From: a virus | Lineage: Duplodnaviria; Heunggongvirae; Uroviricota; Caudoviricetes | Reading direction: 5' to 3' (one strand) | Length of the DNA stretch: 38,358 nucleotides | IMG/VR virus record: IMGVR_UViG_3300045988_093140 | Part shown: piece by piece, positions 15,865 to 32,206 of the stretch | Numbering within the stretch: the stretch's first letter is position 1 | How the letters are laid out: every line of letters starts with the position of its first letter | Program-made: the position numbers and the translations under genes | Notes under the pieces: model-generated | Told to the model about the DNA's origin: nothing | The model's database searches: none | The model's input: the letters and a program-made list of their open reading frames with translations, nothing else

Positions 15865-16000
15865 TGTTCATTCCACGGACAAAAACAGAGAAAGGAAACG
15901 ACAGAGGCCAAAAAGCCCGTTTTCAGCATCTGTCGTTTCCTTTCTTTTCAGGGGGTGTTTTAAATAAAAACATGAAGTTACGGCGAAGAAGAACGGAAAC

Positions 16001-16080: not shown

Positions 16081-16135
16081 CCCGCAGGCGTTCTAGTTTA
16101 TTCGCAATGAATTCAATGTCTGACAGACCTGCGTC

Positions 16136-16153
16136 GTGCGACCACGGTCGCAC
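16136..16153. repeat. sopC-like 18-bp palindrome GTGCGACCACGGTCGCAC, copy 1
   Basis: Exact inverted repeat; core GACCACGGTC shared with the F-plasmid SopB binding site as I recall it. Confidence 0.6.
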
Positions 16154-16167
16154 AGCAATGAATCAAC

Positions 16168-16236
16168 ATCCTGCATGCTCGCGCAGAGGAGTTCCCCGTC
16201 GGACTACGGTCATGGTTAATGCGGGAATACAGCGAC
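16168..16236. repeat. 68-bp direct repeat, left copy, flanking the AT-rich cassette
   Basis: ctcgcgcagaggagttccccgtcggactacggtcatggttaatgcgggaatacagcgacgatacagcgc; second copy at 17963-18032 with 5 mismatches. Confidence 0.9.
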
Positions 16237-16362
16237 GATACAGCGCATGATGTGTCAGGCTTGAATACCTTTATCCGTTAAAAGGGATATCAGTTAAGTT
16301 ATCCCGTGCAGGGTATAAGCCATTATCAAAGCCACTCAGTAGCGAATGGCTTTTGTAATGGA

Positions 16363-16812
16363 CTATTTAATTAGTGATGCTGCGTATTCGATTAGATATA
16401 ACTTAGGTGCCAGCCAAATTTTTAACCATGTCATATTGGCTACTACAGAAATAATAAAACTGAACCATAGAATAAAAACTGCTACTAATGGTAAGACAAA
16501 ACCACTTAACCTACCGTCACTTTCCCAAATCATAGTCGGTTTGTATTTAGGCTGTCCATTATCGCATGAGCGTCCTTCATTATCGAACTTACCAATTTCA
16601 ACTTTTTTGCACTGTTTCTTCATAAACCAAATAACCAGCGGAATTGTTGAAATGGCTATTAATGTTTTAATCAGGCTATCAACCATATTCCATACCAGCA
16701 ACTGATGAACAACATCCGGAATTTGAGCCTGACTGAATACAATGGCGGAATCAATTCCATCGCTGGCCTTCTTCAATAAATCAACAAGAATTTTATTTGC
16801 TTCTTCTTGCAT
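16363..16812 (-). CDS. Hypothetical small membrane protein, two predicted TM helices, in AT-rich cassette
   Basis: 149 aa ORF with ATG at 16812 and AGGA 8 nt upstream; hydrophobic stretches LIKTLIAISTIPLVIWFM and GFVLPLVAVFILWFSFIISVVA; low GC. Confidence 0.7.
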   Translation of the reverse strand: MQEEANKILVDLLKKASDGIDSAIVFSQAQIPDVVHQLLVWNMVDSLIKTLIAISTIPLVIWFMKKQCKKVEIGKFDNEGRSCDNGQPKYKPTMIWESDGRLSGFVLPLVAVFILWFSFIISVVANMTWLKIWLAPKLYLIEYAASLIK

Positions 16813-16937: not shown

Positions 16938-17798
16938 TTAGTTATGTAACTGCTTCCGGAATACAACAGCCGACGTGCTACAACGTAAAATTCGCTTGAT
17001 TGTGGCAGTTGAGGAAACAGACTTGCATTTCTCAACATCATCAATAATGACCACATCCGGTACAGGAATGACGCGGGTATGCAATGTTTTTGCACTAATA
17101 ACATCACAGCCATTCAGTGGTCGAATATCTGCATCTTCAGGCACTACCAGAAGCACACGTTTTTCCGGTGCAGAAAAGCCAGCAGCAAGAGTGCGTGACA
17201 ATAAAGTCATTCCGCTGCGTGGCTTCATACAAATTTCAGAAATATGATTCTTTTCGTCCAAATGATGCTGGACATCATTTTTATCATCATTCAACAACTC
17301 TGCTGTTAATACAATCCCTGCTGTCTCAGATTTCCAGGAAATGCTGATATCCTGATCATCTGCATCAACATCATATTTCATCGAGTAAGGACTAAAGCTA
17401 CGTCCAACGAACGCATCATTTACCAGTACACGCCCACCCTGTCTGACCTGAAAGTCAACGCGCCCTGAAAGCTGATTTGCTGTTACAAGCAATGCCTTTT
17501 TTCTTTTTGTTTTATTGCTCATTGCCACCAACTGTTCAGCCATCTCTCTTGTCACACTACCAGAAACTCTTTCTTGAATTTTCACAGAAAATTTTCTGGA
17601 TGTAGTAGCATCGACATTAAAAAATCTGGATGTCATCAGGCAGTTATTAACAATTGGCATCAGCTCACTTACGATTGTAAAAAATTCCCGGTAAAGCTCA
17701 TTTTGCTTTTCAACACACAGCTTTCCACAATCGTCCAGCTTACGCTCAAGAGCACTTAACCTTTCCATTATTGAATTAATTTTTTGCAACTCTTTCAT
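16938..17798 (-). CDS. Hypothetical cytoplasmic protein, 287 aa, N-terminal coiled coil, in AT-rich cassette
   Basis: ATG at 17798 preceded by AGGAGG (MKELQKINSIMERLSALERKLDD...); the track ORF extends further upstream only because there is no in-frame stop; no family recognised. Confidence 0.7.
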   Translation of the reverse strand: MKELQKINSIMERLSALERKLDDCGKLCVEKQNELYREFFTIVSELMPIVNNCLMTSRFFNVDATTSRKFSVKIQERVSGSVTREMAEQLVAMSNKTKRKKALLVTANQLSGRVDFQVRQGGRVLVNDAFVGRSFSPYSMKYDVDADDQDISISWKSETAGIVLTAELLNDDKNDVQHHLDEKNHISEICMKPRSGMTLLSRTLAAGFSAPEKRVLLVVPEDADIRPLNGCDVISAKTLHTRVIPVPDVVIIDDVEKCKSVSSTATIKRILRCSTSAVVFRKQLHN

Positions 17799-17821: not shown

Positions 17822-17839
17822 GTGCGACCACGGTCGCAC
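17822..17839. repeat. sopC-like 18-bp palindrome, copy 2 (extends to 20 bp, 17821-17840), 22 bp upstream of the cassette start codon
   Basis: cGTGCGACCACGGTCGCACg. Confidence 0.6.
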
Positions 17840-17962
17840 GCTCCTGAATACATGCCCTGTTTCTTCCACCCTCGCACAGGACTGGCGAACATGAGGGACA
17901 AACCCGCGAATCAATAGCGCGGTAAAAACCCGGTGTGCATCGTTTTTGATTATTCCCGCACA

Positions 17963-18032
17963 CTCGCGCAGAAGGAGTTCCCCGTCGGGCTACGGTCATA
18001 GTTAATGCGGGAATACGGCGACGATGCAGCGC
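17963..18032. repeat. 68-bp direct repeat, right copy
   Basis: ctcgcgcagaaggagttccccgtcgggctacggtcatagttaatgcgggaatacggcgacgatgcagcgc. Confidence 0.9.
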
Positions 18033-18042
18033 GGAATTTAGC

Positions 18043-18060
18043 GTGCGACCACGGTCGCAC
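18043..18060. repeat. sopC-like 18-bp palindrome, copy 3
   Basis: GTGCGACCACGGTCGCAC. Confidence 0.6.
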
Positions 18061-18079: not shown

Positions 18080-18391
18080 TTATGCTACAGAGGAACAAGC
18101 TGGCGGGTAATTCAGCGTAGTGAATACCGGCATCTCCATCTTGTATGCGTAATGATACTCAGCAGTTGCTCCAGCAGACGCTTTCCAGCCAGGAAGCATC
18201 AAAATAGCATCAGCAGAACGAAGCATTGCAAAGCAAATATCCATGTATTCACGTTGCGTCAGGCCATTGGGTAAAGTGGCTGGATTCAGGACCGAATGAC
18301 CATGACGTGACAAACGCTCAGCCTCTTTATTAAAGGCGTCACGATTAAAATTCTCATATCCCGTCATTGGTCCGGCAATATAAATTTTCAT
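18080..18391 (-). CDS. Small conserved prophage protein, DUF4406 / nucleoside 2-deoxyribosyltransferase-like fold (recalled)
   Basis: 103 aa, MKIYIAGPMTGYENFNRDAF...; ATG confirmed at 18391. Confidence 0.6.
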   Translation of the reverse strand: MKIYIAGPMTGYENFNRDAFNKEAERLSRHGHSVLNPATLPNGLTQREYMDICFAMLRSADAILMLPGWKASAGATAEYHYAYKMEMPVFTTLNYPPACSSVA

Positions 18392-20968: not shown

Positions 20969-20996
20969 AAAAAAACCGCCATAAAGGCGGCTTGTT
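20969..20996 (-). terminator. Rho-independent terminator upstream of the methylase and lysis genes (tR'-like)
   Basis: Minus-strand RNA AGCCGCCUUUAUGGCGGUU followed by UUUUUUUG. Confidence 0.5.
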
Positions 20997-21076
20997 GGCT
21001 GTTGGGTACAAAAAACCCAACTTAATAAAACAATAACTAAAAACCGTCATTTTGCCAAGCTTTTTCGTTTTTGTGC

Positions 21077-21094
21077 TGTGCGACCGTGGTCGCA
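21077..21094. repeat. sopC-like 18-bp palindrome, copy 4 (opposite centre orientation, extends to 22 bp), T-runs on both sides
   Basis: ctGTGCGACCGTGGTCGCACag. Confidence 0.6.
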
Positions 21095-21100
21095 CAGTTT

Positions 21101-24877: not shown

Positions 24878-25296
24878 AGTACTACCTCCTGAAGATTTCC
24901 CTGATAAAACGCCAGCACACGCTGCATAACTTCGCTCTTCTGGCAATCGTGACAAATCATGTTCAAGCGCCTGTCGTAACGACGTATTTCTCCGTCAGGT
25001 AATGACCAGATAAGGTCTGGATCAACCACTACCGATTTCTTCGGCTTTACTCTTGATAGCTTTTTACGGGCGTTTTGCCAGTCCTTGCGTGCTTGTGCAG
25101 ACAGAAATATCCCGGAGCCAGAGATATACAAATCACCACTGGCAGCAAGCTCTCTTGATAAACGACTAACAGCACACCGGCTAATACCAGTTTCATCCGC
25201 AAGTTGCCTAACCGTTCCTCGTCCATTCAGGCGTACGAGTTCCACAATTTGTTTATTCAGTTCTTCCCTCTGTTCTGGTGTAAAAGCCTTTGCCAT
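24874..25296 (-). CDS. HTH-containing phage protein
   Basis: 140 aa, MAKAFTPEQ..., HTH-like VRQLADETGISRCAVSRL; AAGGAGA RBS. Confidence 0.6.
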   Translation of the reverse strand: MAKAFTPEQREELNKQIVELVRLNGRGTVRQLADETGISRCAVSRLSRELAASGDLYISGSGIFLSAQARKDWQNARKKLSRVKPKKSVVVDPDLIWSLPDGEIRRYDRRLNMICHDCQKSEVMQRVLAFYQGNLQEVVL

Positions 25297-25895
25297 TACG
25301 ATTCTCCTTGCCCTTTTACAAGACGGGAGAAAATTGCGGATACATATTTAGCCTGATGAATAGCATCAGCCAGGGCATTGTGTCGTTCGCCATCAAATGG
25401 CATATCTTTTTTAGGATTAAAACCAATAAACTGACCAAGATTAACGATTGTTCGAACATCCTGATCATTAAAATATTCCCACGGACAGGCTAAGCCAACG
25501 CGCTCATAAGCACCGCGTAAAATTACATTATCGAACGTTGCTCCATTTCCCCATACTTTCAATTTTTTTAAATTACATGCATGGCAAGTAATAAAGTGTG
25601 ATAATTCAAAAAGTGCATCCTTAATATCAAGGGCATCATTAGTACAAATTGCGGCTCTGGCTTCCTTGCTCTGTTTCAACCACCATAAAATGGTATCACC
25701 ATCGGCGACACCACCATTCAACATCGAGCTTCTGAGATTCACTGGCACATAAAAAGTAGGACCTAATTCCTCATTTTCTGGAGAAAAAAACACTGCCCCG
25801 ATAGAAACAATTGGAGCACATGTGTTAGTACCCATTGTTTCAAGGTCAATCATTACATCAGACCGTTTCCTGTCGTAAATAATCTGATTAGTCAC
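25296..25895 (-). CDS. DEDD-family 3'-5' exonuclease (GTG start, or ATG at 25853)
   Basis: IDLETMG N-terminal exonuclease motif and later H..ALAD motif; GAGGAG RBS before the GTG. Confidence 0.65.
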   Translation of the reverse strand: MTNQIIYDRKRSDVMIDLETMGTNTCAPIVSIGAVFFSPENEELGPTFYVPVNLRSSMLNGGVADGDTILWWLKQSKEARAAICTNDALDIKDALFELSHFITCHACNLKKLKVWGNGATFDNVILRGAYERVGLACPWEYFNDQDVRTIVNLGQFIGFNPKKDMPFDGERHNALADAIHQAKYVSAIFSRLVKGQGES

Positions 25896-25918
25896 GAATA
25901 ATTCTCCTCAACGTTTAT

Positions 25919-26122
25919 CTATACCCAAATTTTCTGTTGATATGTTCTGGATGGTTTTGGCGTTCTTTCTGATTCAGGTAAATGAACATAAACGCAATAT
26001 CCATCACCTAAAAAATCAGAACGAACAACCAGAACTTTCTTACCACGCCGCCGATAAGTATCTGAAAGACGCTCTGCTTCATCATGCGTCATCGGCCCCT
26101 GCTTAAATGGCGTTATTTTCAT
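25919..26122 (-). CDS. Hypothetical small protein (start uncertain)
   Basis: ORF-track start at 26146 falls inside the sopC-like palindrome; first ATG at 26122. Confidence 0.4.
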   Translation of the reverse strand: MKITPFKQGPMTHDEAERLSDTYRRRGKKVLVVRSDFLGDGYCVYVHLPESERTPKPSRTYQQKIWV

Positions 26123-26423
26123 TTTCTTGTGCGACCACGGTCGCACCCTCTCTGATTTCCAAGTAACGCTTAATCCAAAGATTTTCTATATGCTTATTAC
26201 CTGGCTGATTTGATAAATACCAATCGGCAATTACAGACTGCTTATTACTATCTGGTCGTGTCCTGTAACCACAAGTTGGACACCAGATAACATATTCATT
26301 TCTTACCCCCGAATACCTTAATTCTGGCTTCGACGGTTTCCTGAACATAACTTGTTTACAAAGGCAGAATGGCACTTCCTGCCCGATGGCGTTTGATGAT
26401 TTCACTGCGCTTCTCCGCCGCAT
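26103..26423 (-). CDS. Zinc-finger protein, possibly Lar-family restriction-alleviation-like (start uncertain)
   Basis: CLC...CPTCG cysteine pairs; family assignment from memory only. Confidence 0.4.
   Translation of the reverse strand: MRRRSAVKSSNAIGQEVPFCLCKQVMFRKPSKPELRYSGVRNEYVIWCPTCGYRTRPDSNKQSVIADWYLSNQPGNKHIENLWIKRYLEIREGATVVAQENENNAI
26129..26146. repeat. sopC-like 18-bp palindrome, copy 5, inside the 3' end of the zinc-finger ORF
   Basis: GTGCGACCACGGTCGCAC; encodes ATVVAQ in the ORF frame. Confidence 0.6.
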
Positions 26424-27066
26424 TTAATAATGCAGTTCGATTTAAGCTCAGACATCGCGACTTAATTAAAAGCCAGCGTTCTTTATAATCTTGTCTCCAG
26501 CTATCAATAGATATATTCAGCAGAAAACTCAGATGCCTGTCCTGTTCTCTCTCATCAACTGCCTCAGCACACGTAAGTTCTGATTTAACCTGCTGTGCCG
26601 CGTAATAAATCAATTTCCGCATGGCTTTTTTCGTGGAGGCCTTCATTTTTTTAAAGCCGCCCCCCGAATGAGCAACCAGAAAATCAAGCCATAACCACTG
26701 ACAAACAATCACATCATTGTTGTAATCTGGCTTGCATCCGTAGCAATAATAAAGCCAGGCTGATTCCTCGTTATTCAACTGACCAATAGCCCTGCGCCAG
26801 CTGGCGCTCTGAAAATCAATATCAGTGAGCAACATTGATGATTGTTTAAATGTTTTCCCCTGGTGGAATCTTACCGGCTCAGCAGGAACGGACACTTCGT
26901 ATGAGTTATCATCCCCCACACTGATTGACCGGACTGGTTTATTGTTAAACCGTCCTGATCTACCGAGACGCATCTGCTCAAGCTGGACCTCCAGAATGCC
27001 ACGCTGGCGATAATGAACATCAGCCAATGCCGTAGAGACGCAGCTGCGTATATACTCAAGCTCCAC
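26356..27066 (-). CDS. Early protein directly downstream of cro; possibly the late antiterminator Q by position (GTG start)
   Basis: GTG at 27066 with GGAGA RBS 9 nt upstream, 236 aa; assignment rests on position only. Confidence 0.35.
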   Translation of the reverse strand: MELEYIRSCVSTALADVHYRQRGILEVQLEQMRLGRSGRFNNKPVRSISVGDDNSYEVSVPAEPVRFHQGKTFKQSSMLLTDIDFQSASWRRAIGQLNNEESAWLYYCYGCKPDYNNDVIVCQWLWLDFLVAHSGGGFKKMKASTKKAMRKLIYYAAQQVKSELTCAEAVDEREQDRHLSFLLNISIDSWRQDYKERWLLIKSRCLSLNRTALLNAAEKRSEIIKRHRAGSAILPL

Positions 27067-27277
27067 GCTTACGACTCTCCTTAATCGACTGCTTTGCCCG
27101 CCGAGTTGTAAAGTCACTCTTCAGCTTATAAGCAGTACGAACTTCAATATCGCTTTGCCGCAATGAAGGAATCTCTCCAGCGGTTAACCATTGGTAAACA
27201 GCTCCGGGTGTTACACCTACCCCTGCCGCTGCTTTTTCTACACTGCCAAAGTGGCGAATAAGTTCTTCTGGTTTCAT
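27056..27277 (-). CDS. Cro-like HTH regulator
   Basis: From MKPEELIRHFGSVEKAAAGVGVTPGAVYQW... (73 aa); divergent from the CI-like gene. Confidence 0.7.
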   Translation of the reverse strand: MKPEELIRHFGSVEKAAAGVGVTPGAVYQWLTAGEIPSLRQSDIEVRTAYKLKSDFTTRRAKQSIKESRKRGA

Positions 27278-27306
27278 GTTGTTATTATAAACAATAAACA
27301 ACAATT

Positions 27307-27346
27307 AAAGCCAGCTATAATAAATAAATTTTATAGCCAGCTATAA
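27307..27346. promoter_or_regulatory. Immunity-region operators: two copies of AGCCAGCTATAA in the cro/cI divergent promoter region
   Basis: aaAGCCAGCTATAA at 27308-27321 and ttatAGCCAGCTATAA at 27331-27346, the second with 7-bp inverted arms TTATAGC/GCTATAA. Confidence 0.5.
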
Positions 27347-27368
27347 GAAGATCATTTATGATTAAGCT

Positions 27369-27965
27369 ATGAAAACACGAGGCGAACGACTGAAAGCACG
27401 CCGTTTAGAGATGAAGCTGACGTTGCGAGAAGTTGCTGAGGCTGTCGATATCTCTATTGCAGGCGTCCAAAACTTAGAACGTGGCGACGTAATGCCGTCA
27501 CTGGAGATAGGTATTGCCCTGGCTAAATGCTTACGCAAGCCAGTGCATTGGGTGCTGTATGGGACAGAATATGACCCTGATCGCATTCCTGTTATTGGCA
27601 CAACTGAAAGTGGACCTGATGAAGAGTGGAAGCCAGGACAGGTTCCAAATACTGAGCGATTCCTGCCATTCATCAGCCAGCGCAATACTGTTTATGCGTT
27701 AACTATCAGCAATCTTACGCAGGGAAACTATCAGCCAGGCGATTTTCTCCTGGTCGATTCTGCGCTGGAACTGGTCCCCGGCGAGGATGTTCTGGTTCGT
27801 GATACTGCAGGAAATATCACTATCCAGCGCCTGGCCCGTTTTGATGATGAAAATTACTATCTGGATGGAACAAACTCACAACGCGCCATCTTCAGGAAAA
27901 GCGATCTTGAATTTGTTCACCAAATAGTCGGAACGATCAAATCATTCATGGTTGAGGGTAGATGA
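27369..27965 (+). CDS. Prophage repressor, CI/LexA-like (HTH plus S24 peptidase domain)
   Basis: 198 aa; N-terminal HTH LTLREVAEAVDISIAGVQNLERG, C-terminal S24-like region. Confidence 0.8.
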   Translation: MKTRGERLKARRLEMKLTLREVAEAVDISIAGVQNLERGDVMPSLEIGIALAKCLRKPVHWVLYGTEYDPDRIPVIGTTESGPDEEWKPGQVPNTERFLPFISQRNTVYALTISNLTQGNYQPGDFLLVDSALELVPGEDVLVRDTAGNITIQRLARFDDENYYLDGTNSQRAIFRKSDLEFVHQIVGTIKSFMVEGR

Positions 27966-28060
27966 CTTAATACGGGGTTTATTGTTTGCTGTAAATCTGG
28001 TTTAATGCAGGGCATATGTTCTGTGGGTTGACTCAGGTTACAGCAGCAGAAAAAAGACGA

Positions 28061-28095
28061 AAAAAAACCCGAGTCGGCAAACTCGGGTCCTTTTC
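28061..28095 (+). terminator. Rho-independent terminator between repressor and repA
   Basis: A-run, hairpin CCCGAGT-cggcaa-ACTCGGG, then TCCTTTT. Confidence 0.5.
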
Positions 28096-28210
28096 AGGAA
28101 GCAGCCACAACAACGCGACAGATTCCGTCAATTCAAGATGCGTTTATTGTGGCTGCTCCTGCGGATTTTTTCAACCCGAAAAAACATAATTCGCATGGAA
28201 TGGCTAAAAA

Positions 28211-31200
28211 ATGACATTAAACGATTTCTATGCGGATCGCTTTGGCAGCGATCCGTTCTCGCTAATTGAAGCAGCACGGGATGAACTAACCGAGCTGGCA
28301 CAGATGGCTGGTATCAACTGGCCTGCCTGTTCCGACAACATCCAACTCAACCCTCGCGGGGGGGTTGAGCGTTACTCTTCATACAATAAAACATCTCCAG
28401 AAGCTCTCGAAAAGAGCCTGAAAGGACGCGTAGAAATTTACTCCAGGCTGGAACACAGCAAAGGGATTGATTACCCGTTCATTAACTTCGTCCATAAAGG
28501 CAGCGATGCTGGCTCATGGAGCGGTTTCTCCTTCCTGTTTTCTGAATATCGCCGTGAGCAACAACGGAATAATGCGACCGTGGTCGCACAACCGGAAGAA
28601 GAACGGGAAAGAATAGAACGTCAGGCCGAAGCACGTCGTCGCCGTGAAGAACAAAAACGAATTAATGACCTGAAAAACAACCAAATGGACCATGAACGTT
28701 TGCTGGGATGGCTGGCATTCCACAGCGCGTGGGAACATGCTCAGGCTGAAGACGGCTCATGGCCATATGCGATTAAAAAAGGTATTCGTGACGTTTTTAG
28801 TTCATGTGATGTGCGTCGCGTGACCAGTCACGACAGTGCGAAATGGAGCCGGGGGCCAACCACATATATGGCTATCCCTCTGGCTCACCTGGACGGTCGT
28901 TATGATGGTCGTATTGTGGGTTGGCAGCGAATCGACAAACAAGGTGGGAAATACCAGACCAGCGCAGTAACCAGCGGCGATTTCGTCGGTGCCTGCTTTG
29001 TTATCGGTGAGCTGAAAGGGGCGCAAAACATCGCTGTTACAGAAGGTTTTGCTACTGGTGCATCCATCTGGCTTGCCACGAAAAAAGATAAACGCTTTGA
29101 CGCTGTGGTTGTCGCTGTATCCGCTAACAACATGGTTCATGTTGTGGAACAACTGGTAAACATGTACCCGGCGGCAAAAATCACCTGCGCACTGGATAAT
29201 GACCGGAAATCTGCCACAGAAGGAAAAGGGAATACCGGCCTGCGGACTGGCTATGAAATCTTATCTAAATTCAACGATGTCCGCTGCGTCTACCCAACTT
29301 TTGAAGACGATCCGCAAATGGAGTGCAGTGACTTCAACGACCTGCACAAACTACGTGGACTTCGTGAAACAGCACGTCAACTATTCGCAACAGCAAACCG
29401 CCTGAAAACCGGTACTGATTTGCTATCTCTGACACTCAACCGCCTGAAGACAATTAAGCGGGATAACCGCCGTACTTTTGCCAAAGAGCTGCTGAGAGCG
29501 GTAGATATTGGCATGCTGACCTGTCCGGTTCCTAACAGCCCGTCAGATTTATTTAACATGTTCTGTATCGTTCTGCGTGAAATGGGGCTGGAAAATATCT
29601 ATCGCGCTACGGTAAAAGACCATATTGCCCGTCGCCTGAATAAAAAGTGCCGTATTGCCCAGGCTCCGCGCTCTTTCAGCGAACGCATAACTGATCCCAA
29701 TAAACGCCCTCAACATATCACCTATAAGCGTTTTGATACTTCGGTAATGACCGATGACGTCCTGAAGTACGTGCAATCACTACAGGGGATAGTCATCGTC
29801 CGTGCTGGTATGGGTTCCGGCAAATCTACTGGATTGTTACGACCGTTAATGCATAGCTCAGAACGTGGTATCTCTGTAGCTCACCGTGTTTCCCTTATTG
29901 GTGGTCTGTGGGAAATGATGACTGAAGGAAAAGGTGTAAAAGCCGATATCCTGCACTATCAGGACCCTGGCTATCAGGAAATGGCCCCATACGCCAGTAA
30001 ACTGACCATCTGCATAAACTCGATTGTTAAAAACTGCTGGCAACCGTTGATGCGCCAGCACGACTATTTTGGCTTTGACGAGGCAACACAAGGGCTACGT
30101 GCCGTTCTTTCCGGTCGGGCTATGGAAAACCCGGTGGCTGTATTCAATACGCTAATTGATGCGCTGGCCAGAACGGAACAACACCCAATCATGGTGGATG
30201 CTGATGCGAACGATCTGCTGGTTGACCTGGCTGAACTGGCTATGAAACGCCGCGAAGAACTCGGTTTACCCGCATGGCTGCAGATCCACGTAATTGAATT
30301 ACCTGTTGATGTTCGCAACCGCGAAACAGGTGAGCCAATCCGGGTTTTTTATACAGAAAAAGATCGCATTATGACCGAGGTGGTGAAAGCTGTATCGGAT
30401 GGCGAAAAAATTATGTTGGCCACCGACAGCTCCACCTTTGCAGAAGATGTGACCGCCACCCTGAGAATGCATTTTCCTGGTAAGAAATTTCTGTGTGTAA
30501 ACCAGAAAAACAAACCAGAGCCAGAAGTTGAAGCATTTACCAATCAACCGAAAAAGATGGTCAAAAAATACGACGGCCTGATTTATAGCCCGTCTATTTC
30601 ATCCGGCGTGTCGATTGAGCAAAAACATTTTGACCGTCATTTCGGCATGTTCTGTGGTGAAGTTGTACCCAGCGACGCAGTGCAAATGCTACGCCGCGAC
30701 CGTACAGCAAAAGAATTTATTATCGGCTTTGATAAAGCTCGCGCAAAACGTGAAACTGACCCGCAAAAAATAGAACGAGCATTCGCCCAGGCATTGCTTG
30801 CTACCGCAGGCATGAACGGTGAACTGACGGATGTCGTTTTCGATGGCGACCGTATATCAATGGGGGTGGCCAATACCGACTTTACCAGGATGAAAATTAA
30901 AGCAGCCGCAATTGAAGCGTCTGCGCGTAACGACTACGCCAGCAACATGATCTGCATCATGCACAGCGACGGTTATAAGGTATCGCCGCTGGCCACCGAT
31001 TATGCTGCGAATGATATCGGTAAAGATCTGCGTAAAGAAGCGCGGGATATTGTGTGGGAACAGACACTGGATCTGCATCTCAATACAGAAACTCCACAAG
31101 AATCAGAGCGTGAAGAACTGCTAAAAAAACGCGCGCTGACGCTTGAAGAACAGGCAAAACTTGTCCGCTGGGATATTGAGAACGAACTGAAACTACCGGT

Positions 31201-32206
31201 TGAAGAAGGCACGCTGAAATTCTATTTCGATGGTGCTCGAGACAAAGTTCGCCGCTATGAAACAATGCTTTTAGATGAGGTAACAGCTCGTCGTTACGAC
31301 CGGGAAGAAGCAGCCATCAATTTTACCTACGCATACCGTCAGGCGGGACAGTGGCAATATTTTGTAGTGACCGCGATGACTCGCGAGCAGGCTGATGATG
31401 TCTTTAAAACTAAATTCCCTGGAATAATCGACTACAAGGTAAAAGCTACTCCTACTGTTGAAGTCGGGGCGCGCGGTTTCTATGCGCTTAAATCAGCAAC
31501 TCTCCGGCAGTACTTTATCGACTGCGGTATCAACCCTGAGACTATGACCGGCGAGGCGACTCAGGAGCGTCTCAAATTCGCTCGAGATAACCTCATGACA
31601 GCCGAACGCCGTGACCTGTTGAATAACGTTCTGCACATTGGTGGTTTTATGACGCCAAAAGGGAAGCCTAAAGTGCCGGAAGCGTTGTTTAAAAACATTT
31701 GCGACTCTCTTGGCCTTAAAACAGGTAAACGTCGTGGCAGAGACGGCGATAAGCGTCCAACCTTGCGTTTTGTTGAGCCTGAATCAGCGGCATTTATGCT
31801 GGATATTCTTGCTCAGCGTCAGAAAGATGGCCTAACCCTGAAAACGCGCAAAGCCGAGAAGACCGCCATCGAAATGGATCGCGATTTGGATCTCAATATA
31901 TATATGGATGATAAAACGCGATCCACAAATGAGCAGGTTCAAAACGCCCCTCATTCAGTAATTTCTGAGGCTTTGGCAGTGTTGCCGGTGGCTGTACCTG
32001 AGTCCTGGGCTATGAGTGCGCTTTCCTGTGAGGAGCTGGCCACTATGTCATCATGGTCATCAGCCAGCATAGCTATGACGTTTGCATCTCTGTACCTAAC
32101 AGAGTTCATGGATCACTTGTCCAGTAATGAACTGCGGCGGTTACGTGAATATATTACCGGGAATAGCCCATGCAGCTACGAAGAGCAGGGCGCTTTCTAT
32201 GGGTAA
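28211..32206 (+). CDS. repA: Multifunctional replication protein, primase (Toprim) plus P-loop helicase; N15 RepA-like
   Basis: 1331 aa; Toprim motifs VTEGFATGASIW and CALDNDRKS; Walker A GMGSGKST and Walker B FGFDEAT. Confidence 0.8.
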   Translation: MTLNDFYADRFGSDPFSLIEAARDELTELAQMAGINWPACSDNIQLNPRGGVERYSSYNKTSPEALEKSLKGRVEIYSRLEHSKGIDYPFINFVHKGSDAGSWSGFSFLFSEYRREQQRNNATVVAQPEEERERIERQAEARRRREEQKRINDLKNNQMDHERLLGWLAFHSAWEHAQAEDGSWPYAIKKGIRDVFSSCDVRRVTSHDSAKWSRGPTTYMAIPLAHLDGRYDGRIVGWQRIDKQGGKYQTSAVTSGDFVGACFVIGELKGAQNIAVTEGFATGASIWLATKKDKRFDAVVVAVSANNMVHVVEQLVNMYPAAKITCALDNDRKSATEGKGNTGLRTGYEILSKFNDVRCVYPTFEDDPQMECSDFNDLHKLRGLRETARQLFATANRLKTGTDLLSLTLNRLKTIKRDNRRTFAKELLRAVDIGMLTCPVPNSPSDLFNMFCIVLREMGLENIYRATVKDHIARRLNKKCRIAQAPRSFSERITDPNKRPQHITYKRFDTSVMTDDVLKYVQSLQGIVIVRAGMGSGKSTGLLRPLMHSSERGISVAHRVSLIGGLWEMMTEGKGVKADILHYQDPGYQEMAPYASKLTICINSIVKNCWQPLMRQHDYFGFDEATQGLRAVLSGRAMENPVAVFNTLIDALARTEQHPIMVDADANDLLVDLAELAMKRREELGLPAWLQIHVIELPVDVRNRETGEPIRVFYTEKDRIMTEVVKAVSDGEKIMLATDSSTFAEDVTATLRMHFPGKKFLCVNQKNKPEPEVEAFTNQPKKMVKKYDGLIYSPSISSGVSIEQKHFDRHFGMFCGEVVPSDAVQMLRRDRTAKEFIIGFDKARAKRETDPQKIERAFAQALLATAGMNGELTDVVFDGDRISMGVANTDFTRMKIKAAAIEASARNDYASNMICIMHSDGYKVSPLATDYAANDIGKDLRKEARDIVWEQTLDLHLNTETPQESEREELLKKRALTLEEQAKLVRWDIENELKLPVEEGTLKFYFDGARDKVRRYETMLLDEVTARRYDREEAAINFTYAYRQAGQWQYFVVTAMTREQADDVFKTKFPGIIDYKVKATPTVEVGARGFYALKSATLRQYFIDCGINPETMTGEATQERLKFARDNLMTAERRDLLNNVLHIGGFMTPKGKPKVPEALFKNICDSLGLKTGKRRGRDGDKRPTLRFVEPESAAFMLDILAQRQKDGLTLKTRKAEKTAIEMDRDLDLNIYMDDKTRSTNEQVQNAPHSVISEALAVLPVAVPESWAMSALSCEELATMSSWSSASIAMTFASLYLTEFMDHLSSNELRRLREYITGNSPCSYEEQGAFYG
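28572..28589. repeat. sopC-like palindrome, copy 6 (one outer mismatch), inside repA coding sequence
   Basis: aTGCGACCGTGGTCGCAC; encodes ATVVAQ in RepA. Confidence 0.55.

Follow-up and report, generated by a model that had tools for sequence, protein, structure and literature searches.

The viral record IMGVR_UViG_3300045988_093140, a stretch of 38,358 nucleotides (here called the window), carries six copies of one palindrome, two of which lie inside genes: one in the replication gene repA and one near the 3' end of a Lar-like zinc-finger open reading frame (ORF). Our comparisons with related phages support the view that it is the DNA and not the protein on which purifying selection acts at these sites, with the coding sequences having accommodated the palindromes, because the palindrome arms are frozen at synonymous positions, the flanking sequence varies, and the half-site co-varies with the recognition helix of the partition protein SopB. 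By analogy with phage N15, the palindromes are very probably centromere sites (parS/sopC type) for the SopB of an N15-like linear plasmid prophage.

A dispersed palindrome in an N15-like phage-plasmid

The 16-mer TGCGACCRYGGTCGCA has six exact matches in the window (at 16137, 17823, 18044, 21079, 26130, and 28573), while shuffled sequences predict 0.06 copies by chance, an expectation that ignores phylogenetic relatedness. At one to two mismatches, no extra match was found in the window. In the 18-mer form, five copies are GTGCGACCNNGGTCGCAC and perfect palindromes, and the repA copy, ATGCGACCGTGGTCGCAC, is palindromic at 17 of 18 positions. The palindromes occur as single copies with the half-site GCGACC, 221 to 5051 bp apart and spanning 12.5 kb. 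Four of the six are noncoding and stand in addition to the two in-gene copies (Table 1).

By its DNA, the window is an N15-like linear phage-plasmid (linear plasmid prophage). The region from 25000 to 30000 is 99% identical to Escherichia phage YDC107_1, 98% identical to PhiR46_1, and about 76% identical to N15 and phiKO2. The gene order is of the N15 type: tail, head, terminase, lysis, late regulators, Q, cro, repressor, repA, antirepressor, and protelomerase. The YDC107_1 record (CP025712.1; L001 in our set) looks like a fold-back assembly at 34650-46701, where the right arm (protelomerase, antirepressor, and repA) recurs inverted after telN with its coding sequences fragmented and sopAB unannotated.

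N15 has four copies of the motif: one lies in repA, one between Q and gene 41, one immediately 5' of the late -35 element, and one after gene 58. Matched by place, copy 6 corresponds to the N15 inverted repeat IR1, copy 5 to IR2, and copy 4 to IR3, and copies 1 to 3 lie in the IR4 region. Oligonucleotides IR1 to IR4 built a working N15 centromere, and N15 SopB foci form on a joined 4xIR array (PMC7205306). The flanks of those oligonucleotides match the N15 places, IR1 at the repA codons and IR2 in the Lar-like tail (K-E-G-A-T-S-V-A-R-D-N-E). The dispersed centromere sites of N15 are also cited as established (PMC3235114). In the phiKO2 record NC_005857, four 18-bp “putative plasmid partitioning sites” are annotated at the same four places, one within the repA coding sequence, and the site that follows the deoxyribosyltransferase gene sits in the same place as copy 3. 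The N15 sites IR1 to IR4 were reportedly described by Ravin and Lane in 1999 and by Grigoriev and Lobocka in 2001, and those of phiKO2 are said to come from Casjens et al. in 2004.

What SopB does in this element, from binding to partition to a possible effect on transcription, we infer from N15. In the mechanism suggested by the Sop systems of F and N15, SopB would bind as a dimer, each monomer contacting one arm of a 16- to 18-bp inverted repeat with its helix-turn-helix. Bound SopB would nucleate a larger SopB complex, which the SopA ATPase would position such that each daughter cell receives a plasmid copy.

Table 1. Palindrome copies and neighboring features of the window
Feature	Position	Strand	Remarks
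Palindrome copy 1	16136..16153	.	In a ~91-nt segment absent from YDC107_1 and PhiR46_1
Palindrome copy 2	17822..17839	.	24 nt upstream of the ATG (17798) of the phrog_2571 gene; flagged as terminator-like, minus strand
Palindrome copy 3	18043..18060	.	20 nt downstream of the nucleoside 2-deoxyribosyltransferase gene (18080-18391)
Palindrome copy 4	21078..21095	.	N15 IR3 orthologue by place; between the gp51 stop codon and the late promoter
Palindrome copy 5, GTGCGACCACGGTCGCAC	26129..26146	.	N15 IR2 orthologue by place; encodes A94-Q99 of the minus-strand Lar-like ORF
Palindrome copy 6, ATGCGACCGTGGTCGCAC	28572..28589	.	N15 IR1 orthologue by place; encodes RepA A122-Q127
Late promoter-like site, TTGGCA, 17 nt, TATTGT	21030..21058	-	Aligned with the annotated -35/-10 of N15 and phiKO2
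Conserved terminator	20973-20993		Downstream of the late promoter-like site; aligns with N15 and phiKO2
Small gene, 67 aa	25919..26122	-	phrog_1212 profile positions 1-65 of 66, E=1.2e-25; downstream of the Lar-like ORF
Lar-like zinc-finger ORF, 106 aa	26103..26423	-	phrog_6795, E=1.5e-45; overlaps the 3' end of gene Q
Gene Q, late antiterminator	26356..27066	-	Pfam Phage_antiter_Q, E=5e-84; annotated in YDC107_1; upstream neighbor of the Lar-like ORF
repA, 1331 aa, primase/replicase of the linear plasmid	28211..32206	+	Site in a predicted coil

The in-gene copies are conserved as DNA

A sequence-only reading of this DNA had placed two palindromes within coding sequence, both read as ATVVAQ, and exact matching confirmed it: the peptide is residues 94-99 of the Lar-like protein, seven codons ahead of its stop, and residues 122-127 of RepA. 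The same reading had proposed that selection acts on the DNA rather than on the protein, and this stood up to comparison with relatives, in which synonymous arm positions are invariant and the peptide follows the half-site. Relatives were gathered by tblastn against phage records and by pattern scans of IMG/VR and GTDB contigs; a homologue search that used RepA residues 1 to 400 yielded just ten proteins, mostly fragments.

For repA, 19 distinct N15-like 5' regions were compared, with 60 nt on each side of the site as flanks. Five of the six third-codon positions in the 16-mer were invariant, while 37 of 40 in the flanks were variable (Fisher p=4.6e-5; n=19 sequences), in a test that ignores phylogenetic relatedness. 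Across the 19 sequences, the palindrome arms showed zero changes. Directly before the site, the encoded residue is N, G, H, R, or C, but the codon invariably ends with the T that forms the first base of the 16-mer. The Lar-like tail behaves likewise, with the 16-mer an invariant island amid variable sequence. The central dinucleotide is free to vary, and the middle residue varies with it: RepA reads ATTVA in one relative (L023) and ATMVA in another (L123), and the Lar-like tail takes several forms (given below).

RepA homologues of no more than 33% identity (VP882-like, Pseudomonas, and others) lack the palindrome and have unrelated residues at its position. Two closer relatives (L140 and L139; 50 to 63% RepA identity) also have no repA palindrome and unrelated residues there. 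The refuting condition that the sequence-only reading had set thus comes out in favor of selection on the DNA.

An AlphaFold model of RepA residues 1 to 400 puts residues 122-127 in a coil with a predicted local distance difference test score (pLDDT) below 50, between helices 105-119 and 129-175, the latter long and charged; the model is indicative only, its quality being moderate (mean pLDDT 66 on an alignment of five sequences). The RepA site is thus predicted to fall in an unstructured hinge between two helices.

The two in-gene places have in common 19 nt, TGCGACCGTGGTCGCACAA in the sense of each gene, which is the 16-mer plus CAA. A duplication common to repA and the Lar-like gene was rejected, as the shared stretch is only these 19 nt. 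Read from the sequence, none of the six possible readings of the palindrome contains a stop codon, and an identical peptide means the same frame together with the same orientation of the nonpalindromic central dinucleotide, for which the chance is about 1/6. As one of six stop-free readings, ATVVAQ in both genes is not significant alone. Its double occurrence is a coincidence of frame and orientation at the level of the strain: the Lar-like tail reads ATVVA, ATAVA, ATTVA, ATSVA, or ATMVA in different relatives, close ones among them. The frame used in both genes gives small neutral residues (A-T-x-V-A). We rejected this frame preference as a rule, as PY54-like phages use W-D-x-G-P at a second repA site.

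Relatives carry other site types at the same positions

As in the window, the Yersinia telomere phages PY54 and vB_YenS-P840 have one site within these codons of repA and one in the Lar-like tail, and the reading frame is shared. They differ in their F-type GGGACC half-site, their F-type SopB helix, and an additional site within repA. PY54, P840, and at least 13 further distinct contigs (40 to 63% RepA identity) have TGGGACCNNGGTCCCA at these repA codons, read G-T-x-V-P, and most PY54-like relatives also have it in their last Lar-like codons. This sequence is the sopC site of the F plasmid (PMC3597684). Domain swaps located specificity determinants in the helix-turn-helix segment of SopB, and the N15 and F sites have one base difference per half-site (PMC2910045).

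The SopB recognition helix of PY54-like phages, ENISRKII, is identical to that of F SopB; N15-type phages, including PhiR46_1, have EG(V/I)DRNI. PhiR46_1 encodes ParA/ParB, and its ParB is 74% identical to N15 SopB and matches PDB 3MKY, the solved F SopB structure. The IMG/VR contig 2700989363_000008, whose RepA N terminus is 100% identical to that of the window, has sopA and sopB on the same contig. Both of these SopB proteins have the N15-type DRNI recognition helix. The co-variation of site and SopB helix covers the GCGACC and GGGACC classes only, the other sop loci coming from separate contigs that share at most a sample with the sites. Other recognition helices (ARRVV, KKDRK, and IERKV) occur among IMG/VR SopB proteins, on contigs other than the palindrome-bearing ones.

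Further half-sites occupy the same places. Erwinia-like contigs have GTGACC-type sites, and their repA carries a hybrid, GCGACC..GGTCAC, read ATVVT. L140 has TGTGGCCATGGCCACA (GTGGCC class) in the Lar-like tail, read S-V-A-M-A-T, and no repA site. Its palindromes of this class are at 2169, 7877, and 16692, in the usual places. The TGTGACCNNGGTCACA class is found at the usual places in L156 (3908-15637) and in Erwinia-like contigs; L158, L159, and L036 are among the loci with these further classes. L156 and L140 are without the repA site but retain other sites.

The second repA site of PY54-like phages lies about 256 nt downstream of the first in another frame, read W-D-x-G-P/H, and in the GTGACC class C-D-x-G-H. 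It was seen in PY54 itself (L028, 12626-12641, degenerate), at about +626 of repA in L144, L141, L147, L155, and L035, and in L159; it is absent from the N15-like phages compared.

Taken together, these sequences indicate that the site positions predate site specificity: the same codons hold the half-sites GCGACC, GGGACC, and GTGACC, with the SopB helix changing along where the two are paired. It is possible, and we offer this as a tentative model, that the in-gene positions are old anchors at which the half-site was re-specified several times in place (GCGACC, GGGACC, GTGACC, and GTGGCC), the peptide following (ATxVA, GTxVP, ATxVT, and VAMAT) with a change of SopB helix (DRNI versus SRKI) where paired. 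If true, the anchors would record, within genes, a natural succession of switches in ParB-parS specificity. We found no description of such a series in the literature available.

Weighing the reading against its alternatives

Several points weigh against selection on the DNA for SopB binding, beyond the neglect of relatedness in both tests and the quality of the RepA model. At its two middle bases, the repA copy is almost always GT (36 of 38 distinct N15-type sequences), which may reflect some constraint on the central RepA residue, from the protein or from orientation. In addition, sopA and sopB are absent from the window, their operon sitting on the other arm of the linear plasmid, so the SopB partner of the window sites was taken from the near-identical genomes.

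Copy 4 ends 19 nt upstream of the TTGGCA -35 element of the late promoter-like site. A study of N15, going by its title, reportedly found that the Sop system facilitates late gene expression. A regulatory side-role of SopB at these places is plausible. We consider it unlikely that, while the sites bind SopB, their positions in repA, beside Q, and beside the late promoter are kept mainly for regulation, that is, for SopB-mediated silencing or stimulation of replication and late genes, with partition alone being servable from anywhere. The positions are conserved over 40 to 100% RepA identity and across specificity changes, and the distance from copy 4 to the late -35 is fixed at 19 nt in the window, N15 (IR3), and phiKO2, which would favor such a role. 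However, simple inheritance and the cost of losing any site could explain conserved positions, the number of sites and the cos-proximal sites differ among close relatives, and L156 and L140 keep their other sites without one in repA.

That the palindromes act as RNA or DNA hairpins (terminators or processing sites) instead of protein-binding sites appears very improbable to us. N15 IR4 is annotated as a putative rho-independent terminator stem-loop, and copy 2 was flagged as terminator-like on the minus strand, the only copy so flagged. However, the terminator-like sites found in 25900-28800 do not include copies 5 and 6, no T-run follows either copy, and termination 360 nt into repA would be detrimental. 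The stems show zero compensatory changes, their arms being invariant, and hairpins leave unexplained why all sites of a genome change half-site jointly with the SopB helix.

The notion that RepA and the zinc-finger protein both need ATVVAQ, with the palindrome as a by-product, would fit the identical hexapeptide in both genes and the nearly invariant central Val of RepA among N15-like phages, but we give it hardly any credence and regard it as excluded by sequence comparisons with relatives, since four more copies are noncoding, frozen synonymous arm positions stand amid variable flanks, the peptide becomes GTxVP, ATVVT, or VAMAT where the half-site differs, RepA homologues without the site carry unrelated residues, the Lar-like ORF ends ahead of the palindrome in seven relatives, and the residues sit in a low-confidence coil.

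Copy 5 and the Lar-like ORF

Judged from sequence, the 106-aa Lar-like ORF is a real gene, because it matches phrog_6795 (“Lar-like restriction alleviation protein”), is annotated in PY54 and VP882, and has conserved cysteines. Its match to Pfam Lar_restr_allev (PF14354) is weak, at 21 bits under a 28.6-bit cutoff. The ORF is conserved in N15, phiKO2, PY54, and VP882-like phages, with the CxC and CPTC motifs (zinc-binding cysteines) kept in relatives. The PY54 and VP882 records annotate the gene, and the PhiR46_1 record and the N15 RefSeq record do not.

Copy 5 lies beyond the conserved zinc-ribbon core, in a tail that cannot be aligned between N15-like and PY54-like phages. The Lar-like stop codon of seven relatives comes 13 to 22 nt before the palindrome, leaving the site outside the ORF, and in another relative (L034) the ORF terminates directly after it. 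By these comparisons, the C-terminal tail that holds copy 5 is dispensable and nonconserved. Because several relatives carry the palindrome 3' of the Lar-like stop codon, copy 5 is better described as a gene-junction site that the Lar-like ORF reads through in the window lineage.

On the other side of copy 5, YDC107_1 annotates an ORF at window 25919-26146 with a GTG start inside the palindrome, which would put copy 5 in two overlapping frames. We rejected this ORF in favor of a start at ATG 26122. The small gene most likely starts at this ATG, 7 nt past the palindrome, because from there the phrog_1212 match covers profile positions 1-65 of 66, and the annotated GTG start at 26146 is probably an artifact. 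YDC107_1 gives the label “putative orf QD1” to both the GTG-start ORF and the Lar-like ORF.

The cos-proximal region

The segment that holds copy 1 (16087-16177) is strain specific; in YDC107_1 and PhiR46_1, the nearest relatives, its place is taken by about 140 nt that are related to window 17861-18032 and contain no palindrome. A direct repeat of about 80 nt (93% identical; 16169-16246 and 17954-18032) flanks a cassette of two genes with no assigned function, phrog_3054 (16363-16812) and phrog_2571 (16938-17798). Palindrome copies lie at or near both cassette borders and within the cassette. Beside the small terminase gene, a 26-nt inverted repeat (15889-15945; 88% complementary, 5-nt spacer) presumably falls within the cos region.

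Comparison with known partition systems

Partition sites within genes are already known from N15 and phiKO2, and this feature is not new. The comparative picture, with fixed in-gene positions, several specificities, and peptides that follow the DNA, adds a modest new element. For annotation, the palindromes in repA and after Q of N15-like phage-plasmids can be labeled partition sites rather than protein motifs, terminators, or repeats with no assigned function. They also illustrate cleanly how a DNA-binding site prevails over codon choice, and even over amino acid identity, inside genes, and how positions are retained while a site and its binding protein switch specificity together. This may help studies of ParB-parS specificity evolution or the design of orthogonal partition or labeling systems.

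The window shares with N15 the consensus GTGCGACCNNGGTCGCAC, which its six 16-mers match as inverted repeats of 16 to 18 bp, the signs of selection on the DNA, and the dispersed layout at the IR1 to IR4 places. These are codons 121-126 of repA, the tail of the ORF that follows Q (a Lar-like family member by its profile match and conserved Cys pairs), a point 19 nt away from the late -35, and the stretch following the deoxyribosyltransferase gene, with IR4 in the cos-proximal late region. The window differs in having six copies, three of them cos-proximal, where N15 has four, in the central dinucleotides, and in a background identity of about 76%. As the N15 RefSeq record has no Lar-like annotation, N15 IR2 appears intergenic there. 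phiKO2 likewise has sites at the same four places, including the repA coding sequence, and the N15-type SopB helix; unlike the window, it has a Klebsiella host, four sites instead of six, and an unannotated Lar-like ORF.

F sopC resembles the window in its 16-bp inverted repeat, bound by SopB in F, and the SopB proteins are homologous. The F half-site TGGGACC is one base apart from TGCGACC of the window. F sopC consists of noncoding tandem 43-bp repeats, each with TGGGACCACGGTCCCA, clustered beside sopB, whereas the window sites are single, far from sopAB, and in two cases within ORFs. No such array was found in the window, and an F-like tandem array was seen only in an unrelated locus (L211/L264).

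A more distant parallel is Bacillus subtilis parS, which reportedly lies within spo0J and is tolerated there as a ParB-family site inside coding sequence (work attributed to Lin and Grossman, 1998). Chromosomal parS belongs to another ParB subfamily, has the consensus TGTTCCACGTGGAACA, and is found on a chromosome rather than a phage-plasmid. What it has in common with the window is that, in both, ParB-family sites inside genes are tolerated by transcription and translation.

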